From a virus, in the IMG/VR virus record IMGVR_UViG_3300045988_112441: DNA of 64,000 bases, one strand, 5' to 3'. The notes below the pieces were generated by a model. It ran no database searches, was not told where the DNA came from, and saw only the letters and a list, made by a program, of their open reading frames with translations. Position 1 is the stretch's first letter, and each line of letters starts with the position of its first letter. The position numbers and the translations under genes are program-made. Positions 24,175-46,822 of this stretch are shown here, in pieces.

Positions 24175-27100
24175 TTACGCTATCTCTCTATCATGCAGCC
24201 ACTGCTTATAAGGCTTCATCTTCTCAACAATGTACGAATTTTCTTTTCTCTTGCAAAGGATTGCAAGATCGTTACCCTTTGAAATCAGACTTGAATATCG
24301 TGCATACTGAGATGCCCAACAAATCATTTCGACAATACCACCTGTCGTGTAAACATGTAAGTACGCAAACTGGTTGCCACGTTTATCCTTCTTTTTTTGG
24401 ATATCTACGATGACACAAATAGCAGTTGCCTTACCGCCATCCTCTACAGTATCAAGACCAGCATCAATATAGGTGCAAGCATCCTTAATGGGATTGCTAG
24501 TCAAAAACATTGAAAGAGTTTCAAATTCCCACATGTGCTCGTCTTGCATATACTTTTCAGCAAACGCCTGCATAAATGCATTCCGCTTTTTGTCTTTTTC
24601 TTTCTTTCGATTCCATGTGCCCGCTTCCCAGCGCTCCCTTCTTACCTTATTATATAAGGCAAGTCTGGTTGGTTTGTCTTTAACAGAGTCCGTATCAATG
24701 CCGTATTCGTCTTTAAGAATGGAAATCTTAGGGAGAGACGCCATCTCATGGAATCCTTTCTCTTTATACTCATTCTCAAAAACCATATTTGCAAAAGTGA
24801 TTAAGATTTTTTTCTTATCCTTTGTCGGGATAGCGCCAGCCTTAATCAACTTGACAACATTTGAGGTTCCAATCTTACCACCGTTTGCTCTCTGAACAAA
24901 GTCTGCCAGTCCAGAATATGGACGGTCTGCAATCACTCCTGAAGCGACACTCTCACCCATTCCCTTAATGGCTTTCAAACCAAACAGGATTGTGTGCTTT
25001 TCCGCATCAGCCTTAAATTCCATATCAGACTTGTTGACACTTGGAGGAAGGACACGAATATGTAGACGGTCGCATTCGTTGATAAACACACCCATTTTGC
25101 CAGAATCGTCTTCCTTGGTAATCATACACGCAGCCATGAAATACTCAGTATAATGAGTTTTCAGGTAAGCCGTCAGGTAAGAAAGAAGTCCATACGCAAC
25201 TGCGTGGCCTCTATTAAAGGAATAAGAAGCCTGCTTCAAGATTAGTGCCCACATCTCAGAAATCTGGTAATCATTCCATCCTTTCTTGTGAAGACCATCT
25301 CGGAACTGAACTTCCAAGGATGCCATAACATCTTTCTTTTTCTTGCCGATAGCACGACGAGCATTGTCAACCTCAGTTTCAGGGAATCCTGCATAGCGGA
25401 ATACCGCTAGTGCCTGTTCCTGATAAAGAAGAATGTATTGCGTCTTAGCAAAAAGCTGTTTGATGTCAGGATGGAGTAGTTTGATAGTCTCTGGATGAAG
25501 TTTATTGGAGCAATACGTCGGGAAGCTGTCCTTAGTACCAGGACGATTCGCTGCGTTCACAACAATGATATCCTCAGCATTATCGCACTTTGCTTCAACA
25601 CACATCTTTCGTGCTTCTGCAGATTCCATCTGGAAAATGCCAATTGTGTTGCCCGACTTGTAGACGGTATCATAGACAGCCTTATCACTTAGATCAAGAT
25701 GGTTGATATCGACATCTTCCCATGTTAATCCAGCCATCTTTAACGTATCGTCAATAATGTCCAGATTCTCAAGACCAAGGAAGTCCATCTTGACCAGCGA
25801 CAAATCATCCATGGCATTGTGCATCTCAAGTTGGCACATCTGATTGCCTTCTCTGTCCATACAAAGAGGACAATATTCAATGACAGGCTTGGGCGTAATC
25901 AATGTACCGGCAGCATGGCGACCCATACTCTTAGGCAGACCCTCAAGACGCATAACGTATTTGAACCATAGAGGAAACTTGTCATATACATTAGAAAGCT
26001 GTTCACTCTTTCCGAGGATATCCTTTAGTAGAACTTCCTTTTCAACTTCTTCGCCAAGATCATCCAGCGTTTTTACAGTCGGAATTAACTTGGCGACCTC
26101 ATTACGTAATTCATACGGAATCTGCATATAATACGGGCTTTCTGGGTCTTCGTTCAGAACTTTGCCAATATCTTTGATGGCAACTTTTGTAGACAAAGAG
26201 TTAAACGTAGCGATAGGAGCAACATTTTCTTTGCCGAAAAGTTCTTCTGCAATAGCAATAAGTTCCTTTCGACGACGTTTAGAGACATCGAAGTCGAAGT
26301 CGGCCAGGCTCTTTCTACCTTTGTTTGCAAAGCGAGAGAAGTCAAGATCCCAACGAACAGAGTCAATCTGAGTAACATTCTCCATAAAAAGGCAAAGACA
26401 ATTTGCGCCAGAACCACGAGAGTACCCACGAGGAATTTTGCGTTCATCAGCCTTTTTGCAAAGCATATACAGCATAATGAAATAGTCAATATAATCAACA
26501 TACTTCAAAACATCCAGTTCCATCTCAATACGATTCCGCCGGGTTTGCTGTTCCACTTCACTCATCCACCCGAATTTTTTATTAAAAGTGGCATATACAA
26601 GGTGCCGAAGATAATCAAAATGAGAATCAAATTTTCCCTCAATTTTCACTTCTGGCATCTGGTTCGGCTGTCCAAGACCGATATCGATATCATCAATCAT
26701 GTCTGCGATTTTCACAGACATCTCACAGCCTTTTTTGATAAAGTCCTCATCAAACTGCTTTGATAGCGTTCTCAAAACATCGTTTTCAGTCTGAAGATAG
26801 CAGTCAACGTAGCTTTCACCAACTTCTCGGCCTTCTCCAATCTCAACAAAGACAGAGTGTGCATCAATATCTTCTTTAGAAAGCATGTGAGCATCGGTCG
26901 TAATGGTATACGGCAAGTCGTATTTCCTAATAAACGCCGCAATTTTTGCATTGGCCTCAGCTTGATCTGGCGTATCATGTGACTGTACTTCCATAAACAC
27001 GTCATCAAAGATCCATTCCAGTTTGTTCCATAACTGCCATGCTTCAGTCTCGTTGCCATCAACAAGTAATCTACTCATTCGACCAACTTGACAGGCTGTA

Positions 27101-27519
27101 AGACAGATGATACCTTTACCCCACTCGTTCTGTTCAATAATGTTCAAAGAAGTTCGAGGCTTTTTATACATACCATCAACGCAAGCATTTGAAACAATCT
27201 TAAATAGATTTTTTAAACCGGTCTCGTTCTTTGCTAGTAAAACAAGATGGTAACGAGGTTGTTTATAGTCTTTTGTATCGGCTTTCTCTGCCTGATTATC
27301 TACTTCATAGACTTCACAGCCGATGATAGGCTTAATACCTGCTTCCTTGCAAGCCTTAACTTGGTCAACAAAAGAGTGCATTTTTCCGTGGTCTGTAACC
27401 GCGATTGCTTTCTGGCCATTTTCTTTGGCAAAGTTTACAAGTTCCTTGACGGTAAGAATAGAGTCAAGTAACGAACCCTGCGCTGTATGTACATGAAGAT
27501 TTACAAAATTATCTGACAT
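24175..27519 (-). CDS. dnaE: DNA polymerase III alpha subunit
   Basis: 1114 aa. N-terminal PHP domain (HVHTAQGSLLD...VTDHG), polymerase core and OB domain. GGAGG RBS. Confidence 0.9.
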   Translation of the reverse strand: MSDNFVNLHVHTAQGSLLDSILTVKELVNFAKENGQKAIAVTDHGKMHSFVDQVKACKEAGIKPIIGCEVYEVDNQAEKADTKDYKQPRYHLVLLAKNETGLKNLFKIVSNACVDGMYKKPRTSLNIIEQNEWGKGIICLTACQVGRMSRLLVDGNETEAWQLWNKLEWIFDDVFMEVQSHDTPDQAEANAKIAAFIRKYDLPYTITTDAHMLSKEDIDAHSVFVEIGEGREVGESYVDCYLQTENDVLRTLSKQFDEDFIKKGCEMSVKIADMIDDIDIGLGQPNQMPEVKIEGKFDSHFDYLRHLVYATFNKKFGWMSEVEQQTRRNRIEMELDVLKYVDYIDYFIMLYMLCKKADERKIPRGYSRGSGANCLCLFMENVTQIDSVRWDLDFSRFANKGRKSLADFDFDVSKRRRKELIAIAEELFGKENVAPIATFNSLSTKVAIKDIGKVLNEDPESPYYMQIPYELRNEVAKLIPTVKTLDDLGEEVEKEVLLKDILGKSEQLSNVYDKFPLWFKYVMRLEGLPKSMGRHAAGTLITPKPVIEYCPLCMDREGNQMCQLEMHNAMDDLSLVKMDFLGLENLDIIDDTLKMAGLTWEDVDINHLDLSDKAVYDTVYKSGNTIGIFQMESAEARKMCVEAKCDNAEDIIVVNAANRPGTKDSFPTYCSNKLHPETIKLLHPDIKQLFAKTQYILLYQEQALAVFRYAGFPETEVDNARRAIGKKKKDVMASLEVQFRDGLHKKGWNDYQISEMWALILKQASYSFNRGHAVAYGLLSYLTAYLKTHYTEYFMAACMITKEDDSGKMGVFINECDRLHIRVLPPSVNKSDMEFKADAEKHTILFGLKAIKGMGESVASGVIADRPYSGLADFVQRANGGKIGTSNVVKLIKAGAIPTKDKKKILITFANMVFENEYKEKGFHEMASLPKISILKDEYGIDTDSVKDKPTRLALYNKVRRERWEAGTWNRKKEKDKKRNAFMQAFAEKYMQDEHMWEFETLSMFLTSNPIKDACTYIDAGLDTVEDGGKATAICVIVDIQKKKDKRGNQFAYLHVYTTGGIVEMICWASQYARYSSLISKGNDLAILCKRKENSYIVEKMKPYKQWLHDREIA

Positions 27520-27860
27520 CTATTCTCCTTCCACCATTAAAACTGATTACGTTCCTTCAGGCGCTTAATCCAACGCTTGCGCTTTTCATCGGCAGTAATA
27601 TTTGCGTGCTCAAAAAAAATCATAAATACGGTCATCGTCGTCATCAAACAACGCATATAGGCAATTGAGTACATCGCCATATTCTTCATTCAAATCAGCC
27701 CACGCTTCACGAATACTTACTGGTGTAGGGTTCTTTTCTATCACGAGCCCGGCGAAGCTTTAATGCCGCCTTTGCAACTTCAGAAGCCTCTTCTGACAAC
27801 TGCGCTAAAATTTCATTCTCGTCGATATAATCAAGGACTCGCAGACCTTTATTTCTATCT
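27520..27860 (-). pseudogene. Fragmented small gene (three consecutive reading frames, no ATG start)
   Basis: Protein-like segments ...ILAQLSEEASEVAKAALKLRRARDRKEP / TPVSIREAWADLNEEYGDVLNCLYALFDDDDDRIYDFF / EHANITADEKRKRWIKRLKERNQF lie in three frames. One join is at an A8 run (27612-27619). Confidence 0.3.
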
Positions 27861-28622
27861 TTAACCATCACTCTTCACCTTGTCTCCAAACTTAATAATG
27901 TCATCAAAAAGCATCACATAGTCATCAGTGTATTTATTTCCATGGAAGTGACCAAAATACCAGAACGGTTTACAATCGTTAGGATAACATTCGTATATAT
28001 CATCAAAGAATATTTCAGTTGACTGGTCTACTGTGCTTTGATCAATACCACCGATAAACAATTCAGTTGGAATGAACCGGAATGGACAGGTATGCGTGAG
28101 CATAACATCAATATCATCGATTTGAGGGTCATGTGTAATATTCCAGATCTTTTTCTTAGTCTTTTCACTCGGCTGTTCATTCGGCCACCAGTTCCATCCA
28201 CGTTCCAACCGATAATATTTATCTACGGAATAAGCTCCGCCGCAAACAAGACAGTTCAGAATTTCCCTATCAGCAAGAATCTGGTAAACTTCGCCATCAA
28301 TAGCAAAATACTGATTGGGATAATGTGGGTCATGCCACACTTTTCCGCAAATATCTCCACTGATTTCCTTTGTCTTATAGCCATCCTTACGAGACGGGCG
28401 GCGTTCGTGATTTCCATGAATGCAGAATAAATTCGCAGGGATGTCCGCAGCAATGGTCTTAATGCTCCATTCACGAGAATCATCCTTGCCGTAGTAATTC
28501 AAACCAACATCGCCAAGGCAGATAATCCAATCATTCTTTCCAAGATTGTGTCTAATGCAAAACTTATTTAGCTTTAAGAGACGATTAAAGTCGCCGTGAA
28601 TATCGCCTGTAATATAAACCAT
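27861..28622 (-). CDS. Calcineurin-like metallophosphoesterase
   Basis: GDIHGD, GDVGLNYYG, GNHE motifs. Confidence 0.7.
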   Translation of the reverse strand: MVYITGDIHGDFNRLLKLNKFCIRHNLGKNDWIICLGDVGLNYYGKDDSREWSIKTIAADIPANLFCIHGNHERRPSRKDGYKTKEISGDICGKVWHDPHYPNQYFAIDGEVYQILADREILNCLVCGGAYSVDKYYRLERGWNWWPNEQPSEKTKKKIWNITHDPQIDDIDVMLTHTCPFRFIPTELFIGGIDQSTVDQSTEIFFDDIYECYPNDCKPFWYFGHFHGNKYTDDYVMLFDDIIKFGDKVKSDG

Positions 28623-38018: not shown

Positions 38019-38254
38019 TCCTTTTTGGCAAATTTACTCCAATCCATCTTGTGATGACAATCAGAACACTCACACTCGAACTTTTCCAGCTTCGTCACAC
38101 AAAACGGACAGAGATACGTGTTCTTATCCTTCTGGAAGATAGGACTTGCCGGAAGGCTCAAGGAGCCGTGATCGATAGTTACATTGATAGGAATTTTGCT
38201 GTTCATCATGTCACCTCTTGTTTGAATTAGCCTTTTATGAGATTTTCTTATCAA
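38015..38254 (-). CDS. Small zinc-ribbon protein
   Basis: CPFCVTKLEKFECECSDCHH. Confidence 0.4.
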   Translation of the reverse strand: MIRKSHKRLIQTRGDMMNSKIPINVTIDHGSLSLPASPIFQKDKNTYLCPFCVTKLEKFECECSDCHHKMDWSKFAKKE

Positions 38255-38727
38255 GTTTTCGTAACTCTAACTTACTGGGAAGAAAATTTCTACAGAAGTA
38301 TGCACTTCCAAAAGACACTCCCTCGACAGGGCTGTCTGCGTGTTTAGGGTCCATGAATCCTATTCGAGAATCAAAACACAGCATCTGTACATCATTTTTG
38401 AAGATGTCAAATCGTGTCTTACCCTGAATACTATTTGCAGGAAGTAGTAGAGCAAACGGCTTTTTAAGCTCATAGGCTCTACGCAATACTTCATCCTTCC
38501 TACTAAAAGGAGGGTTTGAAATCATAATATCCCAATATTCCGGTTCGTATGTAAAGAAATCTTGTCCGTTATCAATGTGGCTATATTCTACTTTATATCC
38601 AGCATTTCTGAACACCTGCACAAAGGCAGACCACTCTTTATCAAACGGACACCAAATCACTGTTTTACTCGACGGGGGGCAAATTCAAGCAATGGAATAA
38701 CCGCGTAAACCGGTGTGTATCGCTCAT
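38235..38727 (-). pseudogene. Phage Dam-like N6-adenine DNA methyltransferase interrupted by a +1 frameshift in a G6/C6 tract
   Basis: C-terminal part has the NPPF motif (IMISNPPFSRKD...LLLPANS). An ATG at 38727 encodes MSDTHRFTRLFHCLNLPP and runs into poly-G 38674-38679. Deleting one G yields a contiguous protein of about 160 aa with a WCPFD (DPF-like) motif. Confidence 0.5.
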
Positions 38728-38777
38728 CGCCTACCGCAGATCGGTCAGCTGTTAAATATCCTTTATTTTCTGGCAAA

Positions 38778-40242
38778 TTATCCTCCTTGCTTTTCTGGAA
38801 AATGCTTCTTAGTTACTGCAACGCAGAACGGTTCAATTTCAGATCCCCAGATAGCAGTACCATCACCATACGTACTTTCAAAGACAAGCGGAAAGCCACC
38901 GATTCCATCAAAAAGACTGCCAAGCGTAGGATTCTCACCGATATACGGCTTCATTTTCTGGAAAATCCAATACCACTGAGGCAATGCAATCGAATTGCCG
39001 AGCGCCTTGTAACGAGGAGAATCAGCTGGTTTGTGCTTTTTACCATTCTCATCAACCCACTCGCCAATATCAGTCCATCCATCAGGGAACCCTTGAAGTC
39101 GTTCACACTCGACAGGAGTCAGGCGACGAACAATCCATTGCAGATTCTTCGTTTCCTTCTCTGCAATCAAGTCAGTAGCATCCTTGTAGTCACGAGATTT
39201 CATCGTACTAGCTTGTTCACTTTCCTTGTATTCACCAATGCGTTGCATTGCAAAGGTTTTCTTTTCAGCAACAAGCGGCATATTATTGCCACCAGTCCCC
39301 CATTGAGCCGTACAAGCCGGACTTGTGTCGCCCTGTTGAGTGTATCGAGCATCCTGACTGTGACTCTCAAACACCACCGGCGAAATCTTTTGTTTTGAAT
39401 TATGTAAAGAGGTGTTGTCTGCCAAGCAAATTAACGTTTGATCTTGCAATGTAGAAAGCGTTGCGCTCTTCTCGATTTGTACCAGTGCGCCTTTGCCACC
39501 ACCTTCGCATCCTGAACGAATCTTTAAAGTGTAGGCAACAGCATTACGGTCAATAGTGTTTATAGTGAAAGCAGTATCTTCTTTTACACCAGTCCCATTC
39601 ATGTTGGTTTCTCTGTCAATCATGTTTCCGACGATACAAAAGCTTTTTTCTCCCACCACTCGATCATTTCCAACAATGCATTTTTCAGCAATTCTGGCAG
39701 CACCTTGCCACGTCGGGATGCTCTCGTCAGAATTCCCTGGCACGCCCGTGCGCTCAAATAATATCTTTGCGGCACGTTGTCCTCCAAAATCCATGACAAG
39801 CGCGATTCTTTGACGACGTTGGGGCACTCCCCAGTATTGAGCATCGAAGAGTCTCCATGCCAAAGACCATCCATTACCGGAAATTGCGCCGGATTTAGAC
39901 CATTTTCCACCTTTTTCCGAAGGTTTAGGAATTGTAGCGTCTGCTTCGACGATGTGTGCAAATTCTTCCAAGACACATCGGAAGTCTTCTCCGTTGTTTG
40001 AGGAGAGTGCTCCTCTAACATTTTCCCAGATTGCAAATTTTGGATATTCTCCATTGGTGGTATCCCTCATTTCTTTTATCACACGAATCATTTCCATAAA
40101 TAGACCAGACCGTTCTCCAGCCAAACCTGCCCGCTTACCGGCAATAGAAAGATCTTGGCTAACAAGGTGAACCACCAGTGATACACGAGACAGGTTCAAT
40201 CTTAGAACCATCAATCTCGCAAATACTTCCATAATGTTTCAC
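38778..40242 (-). CDS. C5-cytosine DNA methyltransferase-like gene, motif order IV-X then I-II, disrupted at the catalytic Pro-Cys codon
   Basis: Motifs in order: ENV (VI), QRRQR (VIII), TRD, RLTPVECERLQGFP (IX), GNSIALP (X), then LFDGIGGF (I) and SEIEPFCVAVTKKHFP (II) at the C-terminus. The GGSPC part of motif IV lies in an upstream frame (GTG at 40242 with a GGAGG RBS). A 4-nt TTAG insertion at 40159-40162 ends that frame with TAG. The ATG at 40232 then gives a protein that reads VSQDLS where motif IV should read PCQDLS. Confidence 0.65.
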
Positions 40243-40383: not shown

Positions 40384-40464
40384 TGGTGGGACATGTCGGA
40401 CTTGAACCGTGATACATATGCTCAGTTATGAGCTGAGTTCTCTAACCAATTGAGATAATGTCCC
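40384..40464 (-). tRNA. tRNA-Met/Ile2 (anticodon CAT), atypical
   Basis: Perfect acceptor (GGGACAT/ATGTCCC), D-arm and anticodon arm (CTCAG-CTCATAA-CTGAG), and an encoded CCA. The variable region is about 9 nt and the T-stem has only 3 bp (mismatches at 49:65 and 50:64). Confidence 0.45.
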
Positions 40465-40653
40465 ATAAAAACCAGTTAAATAGCTGCAACTATTCAACTG
40501 GGCACCTTCCTTATAAAACACTATTGCATCTATATCATATAGACGAGGAAGGAATAACAGCGATGCACATTTCCTATATCTCGCCCCTTTCGGGGTGGTA
40601 TCTCGCACAGGCGCGGCCGGATCTGACCGCCAAAGATCCTACCCATACGAGAT

Positions 40654-40728
40654 TGGAGCAGCGAAAGGTAGTCGAAACCTCATCCTCAGCTTGGAAGGCT
40701 GATGTACTAGCCGTTGTACGACCGCCGC
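40654..40728 (-). tRNA. tRNA-Gly (anticodon TCC) with a G3:U70 pair
   Basis: Full cloverleaf: acceptor GCGGCGG/TCGCTGC with G3:U70 and G7:U66, D-arm GTAC-AACGGCTA-GTAC, anticodon loop CTTCCAA, T-arm GAGGT-TTCGACT-ACCTT, U73 and CCA. Confidence 0.6.
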
Positions 40729-40831
40729 ATGAAAACCCAGCTTACAAAACACTACTGCACCATCACTGGCGAGCTGGGAATAATAGTGGTCAAAGGATAT
40801 CAACAAACGGTACGCAACCATTCTATGACCG

Positions 40832-40916
40832 TGGTGCCACAGGCGAGACTCAAACTCGCAAGCCTTTCGGCGTCTACCCCTAAAATAGATGTGTAGGTCA
40901 ATTCCACCACTGTGGC
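40832..40916 (-). tRNA. tRNA-Leu (anticodon TAG), class II
   Basis: 85 nt. Acceptor GCCACAG/CTGTGGC, anticodon stem TCTAT/GTAGA, loop TTTAGGG, variable arm CGCCGAAAGGCTT, T-arm GCGAG-TTTGAGT-CTCGC, A73 and CCA. Confidence 0.65.
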
Positions 40917-40923
40917 ATATAAA

Positions 40924-40997
40924 TTGCGCCGGAAAGAATCGAACTTTCGCAATCGGGACTTCAAAGGACCCTGCCTTAACCGCTTGGCTACGACGCA
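40924..40997 (-). tRNA. tRNA-Gln (anticodon TTG)
   Basis: Acceptor TGCGTCG/CGGCGCA, Gln-like D-arm GCCAAGCGGTTAAGGC, anticodon loop CTTTGAA with a U:U mismatch in the stem, T-arm GAAAG-TTCGATT-CTTTC. No encoded CCA. Confidence 0.6.
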
Positions 40998-41093
40998 TTA
41001 TATACTTGGCTTGCTGTGTCCTATTGCTCCATTTTTGGAGAGCCAAGAATAATAGGAAAGGTATTTTATGAAAAGCATGTTGGGAAACCAACT

Positions 41094-41166
41094 GGTCGAA
41101 AACGTCAGATTTGAACTGCAACTCCTGCTCCCAAAGCAGGCGTGTTACCATTACACCACGTTCTCG
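41094..41166 (-). tRNA. tRNA-Pro (anticodon TGG), atypical
   Basis: C1:G72 acceptor (CGAGAAC/GTTTTCG), A73 and CCA. Anticodon arm CCTGC-TTTGGGA-GCAGG. One extra nucleotide at positions 8-9, and a weak T-stem. Confidence 0.5.
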
Positions 41167-41169
41167 ATA

Positions 41170-41257
41170 TGGTGCCGCAGGTGGGATTCAAACCCACGAT
41201 CCATATTTCAGGCGTCCCGGTTTAAGCGGGAAATGTATGTCACTCCATCACTGCGGC
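41170..41257 (-). tRNA. tRNA-Leu (anticodon TAA), class II-like
   Basis: 88 nt. Acceptor GCCGCAG/CTGCGGC, anticodon stem TCCCG/CGGGA, loop CTTAAAC, 17-nt variable region, T-arm GTGGG-TTTGAAT-CCCAC, A73 and CCA. Confidence 0.5.
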
Positions 41258-41263
41258 ATATAT

Positions 41264-41295
41264 AGAAGCTGTATTTTTTTACAGCTTCTTTTTTA
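41264..41295 (+). terminator. Strong rho-independent terminator on the plus strand (antisense to the tRNA/HNH array)
   Basis: AGAAGCTGT-ATTTTTTT-ACAGCTTCT followed by TTTTTAT; 9-bp perfect stem. On the minus strand it is followed by ATATAT, so it is not a terminator in that orientation. Confidence 0.55.
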
Positions 41296-41301
41296 TCAAC
41301 G

Positions 41302-42198
41302 TTAATTTTCCTCTTTACTGTTCATATCTAATTTTCTGTATGGTAAATCATAATACTTGCACCATTTACGTATGGCATTTCCTGATACTCCATATTTTCT
41401 TCCAACATCTTGAAAGGACATTGAAGCTGTGTCTACCATCAATTGTTCTTTATCAGGAAAATCAATGCGTTTACTGTAAGGATTTCCTTTTAAACAATTT
41501 TTACAGAGACATCCTTTTGCACGCGGACTCATTTCTTTTCCGCATATTGAACAATATTTGATTTTTCTTCTTTTTCTTTCTTTTTTCTCACGGATAACCT
41601 TTTCACGTGGAATTTGAGTTACGTTGTTTTCAATCATTAGTTGCCTTGCTTTGTCATACCACACTCTCGCAGAATAATAAATTCCAACTTTTTCAAGAGC
41701 GGCATTTATAGTTGATGTTGTTTTTAACGCATCAAGAAAATCTTTATCGCTCACAGTCTTGTATTTCCCGATATTATTTTTGCACCAATTATCAGTTTGT
41801 GCATGACAATTCGGGCAAAGCAACTGAAGATTGTCTAATTCATTATTTATGTGGTTTCCGTCAATATGATGTACTTGCAATGGAATCTGTTTGCCCATCT
41901 ATTCAGAGTTTCCACAACATTCACACTTATATGGTTTGATAGAAAGAAGTGCGGATTTTAAATCCTTTATTCGTCTTCCATTTTTAAAACGAGACAAATC
42001 CACGTTCCCTTTATTCTAGCCCTGCCCAGTGAAATGAGAAGTATTTATATTGTGCGCTTTTGCATAATCTTGAAGTACGTGATTCGTACTTCCACCATTT
42101 TTTGAATATCCAAGCTTCTCCGCAACCGCAGCCTAACTTTTGCTTTCCTCAAAAGCTTGCTCAATTTCTTCTTTTGTAAGTTTATCAATCTTTTTCAT
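41302..42198 (-). CDS. HNH homing endonuclease as one continuous 299-codon frame with three in-frame TAG codons
   Basis: GGAGG RBS before the ATG at 42198. Frame reads MKKIDKLTKEEIEQAFEESKS-TAG-38 aa (KLGYSKNGGSTNHVLQDYAKAHNI...)-TAG-38 aa (...KPYKCECCGNSE)-TAG-MGKQIPLQVHHIDGNHINNELDNLQLLCPNCH... TAGs at 42133-35, 42016-18 and 41899-901. No other stops or frameshifts; ORF-track coordinates confirm they share one frame. Confidence 0.7.
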
Positions 42199-42390
42199 AA
42201 AATGCCTCCAACATCTAATAAATGAATATTCGGACTCTGGTGCCAAGGACGGTATTCGAAACCGCATGTGTTTCCACAGCGAGGTTTGGGCTCGCCCTGT
42301 CTCCCATTTGCAGCACCTTGGCATATATTGCCGGTCTTTCCCGGCTGTCAGCCCCGCTCAGGGCATTTTCGGAGGAAGAAAATGTCTTAA

Positions 42391-43059
42391 TTACTCATTA
42401 CCAAGCGTATCAGCGATATCCTTGAAGTCATTCCACTTGATTTTGACAATTACTCGATTACCTCTGCGGTCTTTCAACTCAACCTTTGGACGACCAACCA
42501 GACCTTCCATATAAATGTCATCAATCGAAACCGTAGACTTCGGATGTTGACACACAAACTTGATACCGTCTCGAATCGTCCCTGTAAACAAAATAGGAAC
42601 TACTTGGATACCAAACATCTGAGCAGTCTTTTCAACCCACTCTCTACTCTGGTAGTTATCACCAACCAGGGCATCGAACAAGATGAACCACTCATCAGGT
42701 CGGTATCCATGACCACATCCTTGAATTTTGCCACCATAACCCTCTCCAAAGAGGATTACTTCTTTATCACCGTAAGTCTGTTCAAACAATTCCTCTGCTT
42801 CAGAAGTACCGAAAATTTCATTTAGTGCATCCACCAAATTCTTAGGAAGTTCGGCACGTTCAGTTCGTCCGGCAAAGCTGACTTTATGACCGTCCCAGCA
42901 AACACGCACATTCGTGCCATCCACTTTCTCAGTAAATTCCCACTCATTATTTTGTAGGAACTCAATGGTTTCATTACGAAAATCACCGATAATCAGCTTT
43001 TTAGTGCCTTCGATATCACGATTAAACACCGTTTCGATTTTTTCGTAGGTTTTCATCAA
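42391..43059 (-). CDS. RNA ligase (ATP-dependent nucleotidyltransferase, Rnl-like)
   Basis: 222 aa. Lys-adenylation motif TEKVDGTNVRV. Size and fold resemble small phage/bacterial RNA ligases. Confidence 0.6.
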   Translation of the reverse strand: MMKTYEKIETVFNRDIEGTKKLIIGDFRNETIEFLQNNEWEFTEKVDGTNVRVCWDGHKVSFAGRTERAELPKNLVDALNEIFGTSEAEELFEQTYGDKEVILFGEGYGGKIQGCGHGYRPDEWFILFDALVGDNYQSREWVEKTAQMFGIQVVPILFTGTIRDGIKFVCQHPKSTVSIDDIYMEGLVGRPKVELKDRRGNRVIVKIKWNDFKDIADTLGNE

Positions 43060-43132: not shown

Positions 43133-45345
43133 TCAGCTCTTCTGCTGACTTGCGTAGAACTCATTCCGCAGCTGAATAATACCCTTTTTGCAGAAAGATT
43201 CCTGGTCTTTCTCTCGTTGTTCACGCATCCAACCATAAAACAGGTTATCCTCAGCAGTAAATAACTTTGCGGTATTTTCATAATAGCCACGTTTCTGAAC
43301 GCTCTGCATGACACCACGCAAGAACTTCCAGTGCTTATAATAAGGAAGCTTCATCTTAAACATGAAATTGTTGCTGTCTCGCAAAACAAAGCCTTCAACG
43401 TGTTCAAAGCCATGATGCAGATAGTTCTCGTTCATGACTTCCTCGTACCAAGGATAGAATTCACTCCAGTTCTCAAAGGTCTTAACCTTCTCCTTAATCT
43501 GCAGATGACACTTCTCAGCTACACGCTTCAGATCATCGTAATCCATCACACTGAAGTTCATATCATTCGCAACAATATCCAGCAAAACAATATGCGGTTT
43601 CTTATATTCAATGATATGAGCATCATTCACAGGATCAATCACCTCGAAGATGATAGAACCATTCTCTTTTGCAACTTCTTTCAGATTCTTACGGTCTTCA
43701 TCAGAAGTCGTATCCATGAGAATCTTTCGGAACATATCTGCAAAAGGCCCTTCAGGAGTGGATTTACTTGCAATGAACAGACCATCCTGTTCTGCATCAT
43801 ACGAAATGATACCAAGAAATCCATTCTCTTTTAAATATGCAGTCACCGGGAACTTCAAAGTGTTCTGTAGGTTTCCAATTCTCGTTTCATTCCGCTCATC
43901 AACCGCAAAGAATTTATCATAGCTTCGAGCTACAATCTTATTCGTCTTTGTGTTAATGAACAATCCCCTTGCTTTGGTAGAAACCTCATCCCAATGCTTC
44001 TTATAAAATGCTTCACGAGAGAAGTTGAAAGAAGAAATATCTCCGAATCGCTTCTCAAACACATATTTGCTTTGACGCATCTTACCAACAAGTTCTGCGT
44101 TATCGAACTCAGTTTTCATTTCAACGGCAGTTTCAGTCTTTGGCTCCTCTTTTCGGAACACATCGTTCTTGGTTTCTACACACTTGATTGACTGACCGTG
44201 TTCAAGTTCCACGCAACGAAGATATCCGCCAAACTCGATTTTTCCTTCGAGGTTGTAGCACCGATGCCCCATATCAATAGGAACATCCTGCACATTCCGA
44301 TGACCGAAGATCTGAATGTAGCTATCCGGCATCGATTTTTCCCAAGACTCAGCCACGGTTAGCATATCAGGATAGCGACCTACACCTTTAATCATCTGAT
44401 CAGCAGATACAAAAGGAAGAAAATAAGGCAGATAGCTCAGGCCACCATGACTTACAAAATACCGCTTACCATCATACTCAAAGTAGGCACACTGGCCGAC
44501 TCTGGAATAGATCTTACGAGCAGTGTTCTTGTCAATACCGGCTTTAAAGAGCTGCGGACGAGTGTAGTTTGCAAACTCTTCACTCTGAACCGGTTCATCA
44601 TGCCCCACTTGTTCAGACAACGCTCGTGATTCCCTTCCAAAAGGATCACATTCTTGCGGTTGTTATTTACAACATCACACAAGAACTTGAATACTTCAAC
44701 GTTTTCGATGCCACGATCGAGATAATCACCAACGAAGATATAAAGTTCGTCGTCCTTCATCTCACCAAGGTATTCACTTAAACAAGTATAGCAGCCATGA
44801 ATATCACCGATGACATGAACCTTCTTCCACTGGTTGAAGTCATTCGGATAGTAGTTCAAATCGGACATCACATCCGTAGTAGAAGGAAGAACCGTCACGC
44901 CAGAAGGAACTTTTTGAGTAGCAAACCGAGCGTACATCTTATCAATGGCCGCTTCAGGAACTCGCTTCAGCCATTCTCTCTGAGCGTTTCTTCGTTTGCA
45001 TTCCTCGATCGGAAGATCCGTCATGTCAATAACATACATCCGATAACGATACTGTTTTGCAAGATTCTTATAACGATTCATTTCGACCGTCTTGGAATTC
45101 GTTGCATCAATCACGGTAAACTCACCATGACTCATACGCACCTCAAGCAGTTTGAAAAGCATCTCCCATACAACATCATCATTCTGCGGAGAAATCTCCA
45201 TCTGCCCGGCAGGTGTTTCCTGTGCGCTCTGGCACATAAGGCGAAGTGTATCAGCACTCAATACGTACTGCTCAAGATTATGCTCTTTAATATAGGTGGA
45301 CTTCCCACAACCTGGTGCTCCACGGAACAGCAAAAGCGTTCTCAT
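43133..45345 (-). CDS. Pnkp-like polynucleotide kinase/metallophosphatase/ligase-like adenylyltransferase, encoded in two overlapping frames
   Basis: ORF 44452..45345 has a P-loop kinase (FRGAPGCGKST) plus GDIHG/GDYLDRG/GNHE. ORF 43133..44620, in the -1 frame, continues with FVSHGG, GHRN and a KENGF ligase-like motif. The 169-nt overlap contains T_TTA_AAG in phase (44542-44548) and a G4 run. Confidence 0.6.
44542..44548 (-). promoter_or_regulatory. Candidate -1 ribosomal frameshift heptamer T_TTA_AAG inside the Pnkp overlap
   Basis: In the zero frame of the upstream ORF (tct tta aag). A -1 slip enters the downstream frame (ttt aaa gcc...). Confidence 0.3.
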
Positions 45346-45422: not shown

Positions 45423-46349
45423 TTAATTTTTGTGGAAGTATTCGACCCAGCCCTTGTATCCTTGTCGAAAACTGATATACGCAACCTTGCTGCACTTTCT
45501 TCCGATAATGTCCGCAAGAGGATATTTACCATTTCCGAAACTAAGTTCTGCAAGATTAAATTCTGGATGAGTTTTACAGTAGTTATAAACCTTGACATAC
45601 TCGCCGTTTCTGGTCAGATGTCTTCGGTCTAAAGCCTTTGAATGATATCTTCTTTCGAGAATATCATTCAAGCGCGTGAAATAACTATGAATCGTATTCG
45701 TAGACATTTTTGAATCACTGTCTGCACCAGTTCTATCCTCTGTTTTGCGAAGAATGTAATCACCATTTATGACATAAAACGTTCTGTATCCTCCCATATT
45801 TGGAGCATCGTATTGTTTCATTTCATAACACTGCTTAATGATATTCATCAATCTCGCGTCAACACCGGTCTTATTCAGAACAGTACATGATTCAAAATCA
45901 ACATCGTTAATTGTCAGATTAGAAACCTCTTCGGAAGTAAGACCAATCCAGTACAGCACGGCAATCACGTTCATACGAATCTGATATGGTTCTTCATACT
46001 TGTCCAAGAAATCAACAAACTCATCAGCTGACGCAAAATACTTGTCCTCGTACATATTGTCTGAACTCACGTCGCTCTCCGAGAATTCAGCTAAGTCATA
46101 CATGCTCGCTCGATACTCACTTTTGATGTAACCTGTAATTATTGACTTTACATTTCTGAACGACCGACTTGAATTCACCCAATTGTATTTGGCAAACATC
46201 TTTACAAAATCATCTTTTGTGAAGTCAAACAACTCATACCCACGCTCGGCCTCGTAATCCATAACATGGTTAAGTGTCGATACAACAAACTCACCGCTTC
46301 TATCAGAATACTTTTCGGCAAAAGCTTTGATTTTTTCTTCAGTAAGCAT
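45423..46349 (-). CDS. Hypothetical protein (possible divergent tyrosine-recombinase-like fold)
   Basis: 308 aa. LTSEEVSNLTINDVDF and HSYFTRL...RRH...Y segments resemble recombinase boxes, but only weakly. Confidence 0.3.
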   Translation of the reverse strand: MLTEEKIKAFAEKYSDRSGEFVVSTLNHVMDYEAERGYELFDFTKDDFVKMFAKYNWVNSSRSFRNVKSIITGYIKSEYRASMYDLAEFSESDVSSDNMYEDKYFASADEFVDFLDKYEEPYQIRMNVIAVLYWIGLTSEEVSNLTINDVDFESCTVLNKTGVDARLMNIIKQCYEMKQYDAPNMGGYRTFYVINGDYILRKTEDRTGADSDSKMSTNTIHSYFTRLNDILERRYHSKALDRRHLTRNGEYVKVYNYCKTHPEFNLAELSFGNGKYPLADIIGRKCSKVAYISFRQGYKGWVEYFHKN

Positions 46350-46402: not shown

Positions 46403-46822
46403 TCAAGCAAATGCGGCAAAATTCTGAAATTCCATAGTATGTTGTACGCCGCTCAGGAATGCTGCGAGCAAAAACGGCTCATCCTTACATCTTGCCATTG
46501 CAATCATATTCATTTGACGCTCCGACAAGACACCAAGTTTCTTAATGAACTGTCCTTTGTTAAGTGTATCAGTCTCTTCACAGAGAACGATACTGTCAAC
46601 CTCTAGGAAATCACAATCTTCCTTTGCGAGTAAAACATGAACCGGAGAGCGCTTGTATATTCTGGAAGACAACGGATTTCCTTTAATTGTGGGACTAAAG
46701 AAGTTGCGCTTATTGTTGCTCGTCACAACGAACGGTCGAATACCGCGCTGCTGATGACCTGTCGCATTGGACAAATCGACCAACCAAACCTCTCCGACCT
46801 TTGGGTCAGTATTGTTGTCCAT
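46403..46822 (-). CDS. MazF/PemK-family endoribonuclease toxin-like protein
   Basis: 139 aa. GEVWLVDLSNATGHQQRGIRPFVVTSNN...PLSS...HVLL...VDSIVLCEE matches the PemK/MazF fold signature. No MazE-like antitoxin ORF adjacent. Confidence 0.6.
   Translation of the reverse strand: MDNNTDPKVGEVWLVDLSNATGHQQRGIRPFVVTSNNKRNFFSPTIKGNPLSSRIYKRSPVHVLLAKEDCDFLEVDSIVLCEETDTLNKGQFIKKLGVLSERQMNMIAMARCKDEPFLLAAFLSGVQHTMEFQNFAAFA

Follow-up and report, generated by a model that had tools for sequence, protein, structure and literature searches.

Two described systems come close to the gene considered here. Bacterial Pnkp, typified by the Clostridium thermocellum enzyme (CthPnkp; TIGR04075), consists of (i) an N-terminal P-loop polynucleotide 5′-kinase, (ii) a central lambda-type binuclear metallophosphatase, and (iii) a C-terminal ATP-dependent ligase. 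In phage T4, Pnkp and Rnl1 form a healing-and-sealing pathway for tRNA repair. The gene in question lies at 43133..45345 on the minus strand of a 64,000-nucleotide (nt) stretch of viral DNA (IMG/VR record IMGVR_UViG_3300045988_112441), the whole of which is referred to as the window. It is a disrupted trifunctional RNA-repair gene (5′-kinase, 2′,3′-metallophosphatase, and Rnl1/Trl1-type RNA ligase; Pfam AAA_33, Metallophos, and RNA_lig_T4_1) whose domain order is like that of Pnkp. The gene is split over two frames, and a slippery heptamer in the overlap invites comparison with programmed −1 frameshift sites of the X_XXA_AAG type, such as those of dnaX and the IS3-family transposases. The window very probably carries instead a loss-of-function allele, a real and recurrent variant created by the deletion of one G from a G5 run. 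The event is of an ordinary kind, namely a recently inactivated accessory gene.

The two open reading frames (ORFs) of the split gene both lie on the minus strand. ORF1 (44452..45345) encodes 297 amino acids (aa) and comprises the AAA_33 P-loop kinase and the N-terminal half of the calcineurin-like Metallophos domain, with the motifs GDIHG, GDYLDRG, and GNHE. Its residues 1–248 are native and end in ...LLEGNHERCLNKWG; the 49 residues after them (MMNRFRVKSLQ...SGIL) are out of frame and lead to a stop. ORF2, at its longest 495 aa (43133..44620), is a mechanical ORF that reaches up to a TTG at 44620. The true-frame continuation within it spans 43133..44602, from His249 to Ser737, and holds the second half of the phosphatase (FVSHGG, with His300 in SHGG, and FGHRN, with His349 in GHRN) as well as the T4-Rnl1-type ligase domain RNA_lig_T4_1. 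ORF2 is in the −1 frame relative to ORF1 ((45345−44620) mod 3 = 2), and the two overlap by 169 nt (44452–44620) that are open in both frames. An earlier note on this DNA had described precisely this arrangement, with the second phosphatase half and the ligase domain displaced to the −1 frame, and its coordinates and overlap hold. The frame changes at a run of four Gs (C4 on the plus strand) at 44603..44606, one position away from the 44602–44605 given in that note. This run occupies codons Trp247–Gly248 and has lost one G from an ancestral G5, converting TGG GGG CAT to TGG GGC AT. When one G is restored, the gene becomes a 2214-nt ORF with a single terminal stop that encodes 737 aa, a little shorter than the fusion of roughly 750 aa that had been envisaged.

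Relatives are colinear with the junction at the G run. When the G-run fusion is searched at the protein level, thousands of full-length single-ORF homologs are retrieved, including two intact 737-aa proteins that are 97–98% identical to the restored protein (P0001 and P0002). P0002, P0004, and P0007, which are 90–98% identical to the restored protein, all read NKWGHDEPVQSEEFANYTRPQLFKAGIDK, the exact product of the G-run fusion, while P0001 (98%) departs from it solely by E251K. Over a longer stretch the same three proteins read ...GNHERWLNKWGHDEPVQSEEFANYTRPQLFKAGIDKNTARK..., from which P0001 differs by two residues (H242 and K251). From NKW to AGIDK, the relatives correspond to the coding sequence of the window with one G added to the run. 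More distant homologs, at 50–60% identity, retain the pattern xHDxxxxSxEFxNxTRxQLxxA, within which F258 and T262 are nearly invariant in the alignment. The conserved HDxxxxSxEFxNxTRxQL stretch falls after the G run but before the heptamer and is read in the −1 frame; the homologs thus track this frame starting at the G run, which precedes the heptamer by 20 codons. The out-of-frame tail of ORF1 has no matching homolog in the same alignment (A1). At the DNA level, the related locus L001 has AAGTGGGGGCATGAT where the window has AAGTGGGGCATGAT (GGGGG versus GGGG), and the only internal indel that separates the gene of the window from the intact genes of L001 and L002 falls at gene nt 740. The single-base indel at the G run that the earlier note had offered as its alternative is therefore borne out by near-identical relatives that have G5 where the window has G4. 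Alignment of homologs across the junction, which had been set beforehand as the test of frameshifting, identifies the G-run fusion (NKWGHDEPVQSEEF...) as the colinear one, and not a fusion made by a −1 slip at TTTAAAG.

The in-frame state prevails among relatives. Pattern scans that allowed either 4 or 5 bases at the site matched the junction in 79 IMG/VR and 31 metagenome contigs, and all 110 are in frame, with none split at the site. In 81 scanned copies the Gly248 codon varies synonymously (GGG in 68, GGC in 9, and GGA in 4), and the frame is kept throughout, in the manner of ordinary coding sequence. Among cultured phages, a homolog is present in 142 records, mainly of Staphylococcus phages, including Twort-like ones, and also of Lactobacillus and SPbeta-like Bacillus phages. 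In 113 of these records a single place spans 80% or more of the homolog, and each of the 25 best listed matches is a single tblastn piece. A megablast of the gene against cultured phages gave no match, and the homologs there are detected at the protein level only. The junction pattern had no match in a scan of GTDB species genomes, which thus gave no clue to a host or prophage. The 161-aa “members” of the 90%-identity protein cluster of ORF1 had been considered as a common truncation; they belong to another phage region and represent an unrelated DUF3310 protein, grouped here by a clustering artefact. With many such unrelated 161-aa proteins in it, the size of this cluster is unusable as a count of truncated repair genes.

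The same deletion recurs in independent assemblies. The exact 297-aa ORF1, inclusive of its 49 out-of-frame residues, occurs on 11 contigs from JGI, ENA, and Logan with differing flanking genes; in JGI 3300029023, from which the window may derive, the gene is identical to that of the window, while in ENA ERZ19079793 (NODE_70, 16.6x coverage) the neighbouring genes are different. A second frameshifted ORF1 allele (P0129) has the same deletion within different flanking sequence and is found on 5 contigs, where the 4 places shown represent 4 different samples with MEGAHIT-style (k141_) or Logan contig names. In all, the deletion has been assembled on at least 16 contigs that span several samples, sources, contig-naming styles, and two allelic backgrounds. 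Apart from the missing G, the P0129-type gene (L093–L095) matches the intact alleles L007, L057, and L082 without a single mismatch over 2.2 kb. The window-type allele, on the other hand, lies 12 mismatches from the intact allele of L053 and 50 from L093. Since the same deletion is found on two allelic backgrounds, and the P0129-type gene is otherwise identical to intact alleles, it most likely arose at least twice. The closest single-nucleotide polymorphisms that distinguish the two alleles flank the run at 14 nt upstream and ~60 nt downstream, which means that any conversion patch shared between them would have to be tiny. Independent loss of the G on at least two occasions in real phage DNA is the simplest reading of these comparisons, and a strong one.

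The consequences for the gene product can be sketched from the domain layout. The ancestral gene encodes a single 737-aa protein that combines a polynucleotide 5′-kinase, a binuclear metallophosphatase, and an Rnl1/Trl1-type RNA ligase. Loss of one G from the G5 of TGG GGG CAT (Trp247-Gly248-His249) shifts all codons from His249 on into the −1 frame, and the mutant mRNA would be expected to yield a 297-aa product with an intact kinase domain, a phosphatase fragment cut after GNHE, and 49 nonsense residues at its end. His300 and His349, the C-terminal pair of metal-binding histidines, would be missing from the phosphatase fragment. They correspond to His323 and His376 of C. thermocellum Pnkp, which coordinate the second metal and are required for its phosphatase activity (PMC3675462). 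The ligase domain is probably not translated because no ribosome-binding site precedes the internal start codons. Phosphatase and ligase activity are accordingly both predicted to be lost in the G4 allele, on the basis of its sequence and of the bacterial enzyme. By analogy with T4 Pnkp/Rnl1, the intact gene would heal and seal tRNA or other RNA cut by host or toxin ribonucleases. The deletion appears to circulate in human-gut phage populations, in which the G run may act as a small mutational hotspot that was hit at least twice, and to be one among several independent recent disruptions of an accessory gene. For annotation, the locus is thus best entered as one disrupted 737-aa kinase-phosphatase-ligase gene with a 1-nt deletion at 44603–44606, rather than as a recoding site or as two genes.

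Disruption of this gene takes several further forms. Related loci and proteins exhibit (i) a nonsense CAA→TAA change at codon 254 in L084, which is 2 mismatches from the intact L020 and others, (ii) a 44-nt tandem duplication at gene nt 694–737 in L011, (iii) loss of one G from a GGG run at gene nt ~1379 in L085 and L086, which gives the 471-aa P0004, (iv) internal deletions of approximately residues 137–327 in P0003 and 313–617 in P0007, (v) further truncations in P0151 and P0159, (vi) a fusion to downstream methylase-like sequence in P0157, and (vii) a 3′ rearrangement in L034. These other lesions occur on backgrounds nearly identical to intact alleles. L053 (IMG/VR contig 3300045988_087521), which is the intact-frame allele closest to that of the window, encodes H349Y (CAT→TAT at codon 349), a substitution of the metal-binding histidine of GHRN that is unique among 65 copies, and also P326S; it is probably an independent, phosphatase-dead missense allele. 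Among the ~77 pattern-selected copies that have the gene start and a readable end, 4 are broken (L011, L034, L100, and L104), and disruption is therefore the minority state.

Selection on the gene is purifying. The ratio of nonsynonymous to synonymous substitution rates (dN/dS) between alleles is 0.03–0.09 in 14 of 15 pairs, the exception being L001 versus L084, which are separated by just 3 substitutions. Such low values place the lesions at the tips of the tree. The gene is thus an accessory one that strong purifying selection has maintained in the long run, while single strains have recently and repeatedly lost it. As a test of whether ORF2 is still in use, a comparison of selection since the frameshift proved uninformative: the two window-type G4 contigs (the window and L004) differ at 24 positions, 23 of which fall in codons 679–737, a recombined 3′ end, leaving 1 nt elsewhere. 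In natural human-gut phages, then, an RNA-repair gene that lies beside a MazF-like toxin gene and a tRNA gene cluster shows strong long-term conservation together with repeated knock-outs on terminal branches, a pattern that fits a conditionally useful counter-defence module.

A second frame break in the window affects a Dam-like methyltransferase gene (~38235–38790, minus strand). The earlier note had placed it at a G6 run, and it is indeed found at 38674–38679 (G6 on the plus strand, C6 in the coding sense), where it represents a polymorphism common to different strains. With C6, as in the window, L003, and L042, the protein reads ...PLLEFAPRRVKQ* and is followed by a separate 141-aa ORF at 38235–38660. 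With C7, as in L004, L005, L064, L068, and L077, the frame is read through as ...PLLEFAPPSSKTVIWCPFDKEW...; L013 is without such a run. L042 is only 93% identical to the window in the Dam-like region and yet has C6, which means that the tract length varies in more than one background. In its sequence the C6/C7 tract looks like that of a phase-variable methyltransferase. An A8 at 27612 had been counted alongside these as another frameshift. That run (27612–27619) is intergenic, flanked by a DnaE-like polymerase gene (24175–27519, minus strand) and a metallophosphatase gene (27861–28622, minus strand), no split ORF is apparent around it, and it is ruled out as a third homopolymer frameshift.

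A rival explanation is that ribosomes join ORF1 and ORF2 by programmed −1 frameshifting at the T_TTA_AAG heptamer (44548–44542, minus strand), to give a 737-aa product reading ...VRSSLK|AGIDKNTARK.... The minus strand does read TCT TTA AAG in the frame of ORF1 at 44550–44542, so that, as the earlier note had stated, a canonical X_XXY_YYZ site lies in phase within the overlap, with both frames open across it; the site is of the X_XXA_AAG subclass. The product of a slip there would also be as long as the native protein. A generic in-phase X_XXY_YYZ site is expected ~0.17 times in the 56 overlap codons (P ~0.15), while the X_XXA_AAG subclass is expected just ~0.018 times. The heptamer is nonetheless most simply regarded as coincidental, being in phase only with the shifted tail of ORF1: it is present because the true-frame codons CTC TTT AAA GCC (Leu-Phe-Lys-Ala) account for it fully. 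It occurs unchanged, and out of phase, in intact alleles that encode the same four residues, and is destroyed by synonymous change (CTT TTC AAA GCA) in 8 of 65 copies. In the product of such a slip, the 20 residues before the junction would be MMNRFRVKSLQTTLVRSSLK, which matches nothing, in place of the conserved HDEPVQSEEFANYTRPQLFK with its nearly invariant F258 and T262. The stimulatory hairpin that might be sought downstream is not evident in the 102 nt that follow the heptamer, which fold at −27.2 kcal/mol versus a shuffle mean of −24.0 (z = −0.99, equalled by 30 of 200 shuffles; pseudoknots lie outside the model). Within the overlap, third codon positions have a diversity of 0.136, close to the mean of 0.147 for the gene and at the 37th percentile of windows along it; this typical value indicates no constraint from a second frame or an RNA element. 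The two-frame layout is absent from the 110 scanned contigs, and in 113 cultured-phage records a single place accounts for at least 80% of the homolog. Only the deletion separates the G4 alleles from intact ones, so that nothing in them is adapted to recoding. Two related routes to the missing domains fare no better. Reading through the sequence between GNHE and His249, where a slip that gives the native junction would need its site, reveals no canonical X_XXY_YYZ; the one slip that can be envisaged near the G run is non-canonical and involves a single tRNA, Gly-tRNA on G_GGC. Independent translation of ORF2 was likewise rejected, as neither the TTG at 44620 nor the ATG at 44395 is preceded by a Shine-Dalgarno sequence, unlike the neighbouring genes with their GGAG-type sites. 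Programmed frameshifting is exceedingly improbable here, and an in-phase canonical slippery heptamer inside an overlap is, taken alone, weak evidence of recoding.

The remaining two alternatives accept the indel and differ from simple inactivation in what they make of it. In one, the gene of the source phage is intact with G5, and one G went missing during assembly. Consensus errors are most commonly of this kind, 1-nt changes in homopolymers; another homopolymer in the window, at 38674–38679, also coincides with a frame break, and every pattern-scanned contig is in frame. Such an error is nevertheless improbable. The identical frameshifted ORF1 is found on 11 contigs from JGI, ENA, and Logan, one of them at 16.6x, and the second allele with the same deletion on 5 more, with NODE_ (SPAdes-like), k141_ (MEGAHIT-like), and Logan naming among them; over 100 other assemblies have G5 in the same sequence context, which makes a systematic error unlikely; and the C6 versus C7 break is likewise common to diverged strains. 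Of the suggestion in the earlier note that a sequencing error had introduced an indel, the indel therefore stands, whereas the number and variety of the assemblies and the two allelic backgrounds make a real mutation the most likely source. In the other alternative, the G run is a contingency (phase-variable) locus that reversibly switches on and off an RNA-repair module which is useful or costly according to the host. Recurrence of the same 1-nt deletion in different allelic backgrounds (L093 equals L007 save for the deletion, and 50 mismatches separate L093 from the window allele), length variation of the nearby C6/C7 tract between strains that include diverged ones, and several independent knock-outs of the repair gene at consensus frequency in natural samples all speak for such a switch. 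Against it, G5 is short for a contingency tract, which typically has 7 units or more, and the run is not conserved, being shortened by GGC or GGA glycine codons in 13 of the 81 in-frame copies. Only the deletion is observed, as neither a G6 allele nor any sign of reversion was found; the majority of the remaining lesions (nonsense, duplication, and large deletions) are irreversible, so that plain gene loss fits better; and the deletion allele is absent from the 110 scanned contigs and found only on 16 contigs of the larger protein index. A reversible switch is thus very unlikely. The broader proposal that the G run and the Dam-like C6/C7 run are both hypermutable switches of counter-defence and epigenetic functions between hosts, that is, viral phase variation, has an equally slim chance; if true, the recurrent consensus-level knock-outs of the repair gene would reflect selection and not decay. 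Four points weigh against simple inactivation by a one-G deletion. Judged from assemblies, the source population may be mixed for G4 and G5, or this particular assembly may carry a consensus error. Trace amounts of full-length protein could come from occasional spontaneous −1 slips, whether at the heptamer, which is in phase, or by Gly-tRNA on G_GGC. The G4 alleles are too near to intact ones for decay to be measured, and the evolutionary analysis leaves room for continued use of ORF2. Lastly, the lesions in L100 (1.5x) and L104 (2.8x) may be assembly artefacts.

The RNA-repair gene lies in a neighbourhood whose members are all on the minus strand. Immediately downstream of it is a second small RNA ligase gene (42391..43059; 222 aa) with a PF09414 match that is weakly Rnl2/DraRnl-like, and further downstream are 7 tRNA genes called by ARAGORN (Met, Gly, Leu x3, Gln, and Pro; 40384..42322). 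Immediately upstream is an MrpR/Xer-like, tyrosine-recombinase-like gene (45423..46349; 308 aa), preceded by a PemK/MazF-like toxin gene (46403..46822). The order PemK, MrpR/Xer-like gene, repair gene is conserved in all related loci examined (L001–L004, L084, L085, and L093–L096), and the pairing of the toxin and MrpR/Xer-like genes with the repair gene may be functional. Part of this island varies between strains, as the small PF09414 ligase is called in L003 and not in L004 or L093. As a whole, the neighbourhood (toxin, MrpR/Xer-like gene, second ligase, and tRNAs) fits a role in RNA repair. No Hen1 is called among the neighbours, which are the MrpR/Xer-like gene, PemK, the PF09414 ligase, the tRNAs, and a DNA methylase.

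In an unrelated phage region, at ~6793–9988 of contigs L091 and L092, a GIY-YIG/NUMOD homing-endonuclease ORF breaks up the gene for the anaerobic ribonucleotide reductase NrdD. The sister contigs L087–L090 carry this gene uninterrupted (736 aa), and the interruption is probably a mobile intron or the insertion of a free-standing endonuclease.

Set beside the known programmed sites, the locus shares with dnaX and the IS3-family transposases the type of heptamer, its phase with the upstream ORF, and its position in an overlap with a −1 ORF. Unlike them, it lacks a stimulatory element, conservation of heptamer and layout, and a colinear trans-frame product.

The likeness to bacterial Pnkp extends over the first two activities. 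The restored protein aligns with TIGR04075 in its kinase and phosphatase parts only (residues 4–303), its kinase matches the CthPnkp kinase structures 4gp7 and 4jst, and it holds the metal-binding motifs GDxHG, GDxxDRG, GNHE, HGG, and GH as in Pnkp (PMC3675462). With 79.4 bits against a family cut-off of 750, it falls below the threshold and is not a member of that family. The ligase domain is unlike that of Pnkp and belongs to the T4 Rnl1/fungal Trl1 type (PF09511); its best solved matches are the tRNA ligases 9qw7 and 6n0v, and the Pnkp ligase module is absent from the 60 best solved-structure matches shown. The gene also departs from the Pnkp-Hen1 system in being phage-borne and in having no Hen1 called nearby.

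Cultured phages (SPbeta-like Bacillus, Staphylococcus Twort, and Kayvirus-like) provide counterparts of the whole protein, with 38–45% identity over 99–100% of the length in the best matches and the same three-domain layout. Their genes are intact, unlike the copy in the window with its 1-nt deletion, and these full-length homologs are annotated just as “RNA ligase”, “polynucleotide kinase”, or “hypothetical protein”.

The T4 pathway, with a ligase of the same Rnl1 family, offers the closest functional parallel. It differs in that the gene of the window joins the three activities in one polypeptide, and in the phosphatase, which in T4 Pnkp is a DxDxT acylphosphatase (PMC3592404), while that of the window is a metallophosphatase. 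By analogy, the restored protein resembles T4 Pnkp and Rnl1 healing and sealing compressed into one polypeptide, and, in the light of established T4 biology, it may have served as a phage counter-measure to RNA-cutting host defences.

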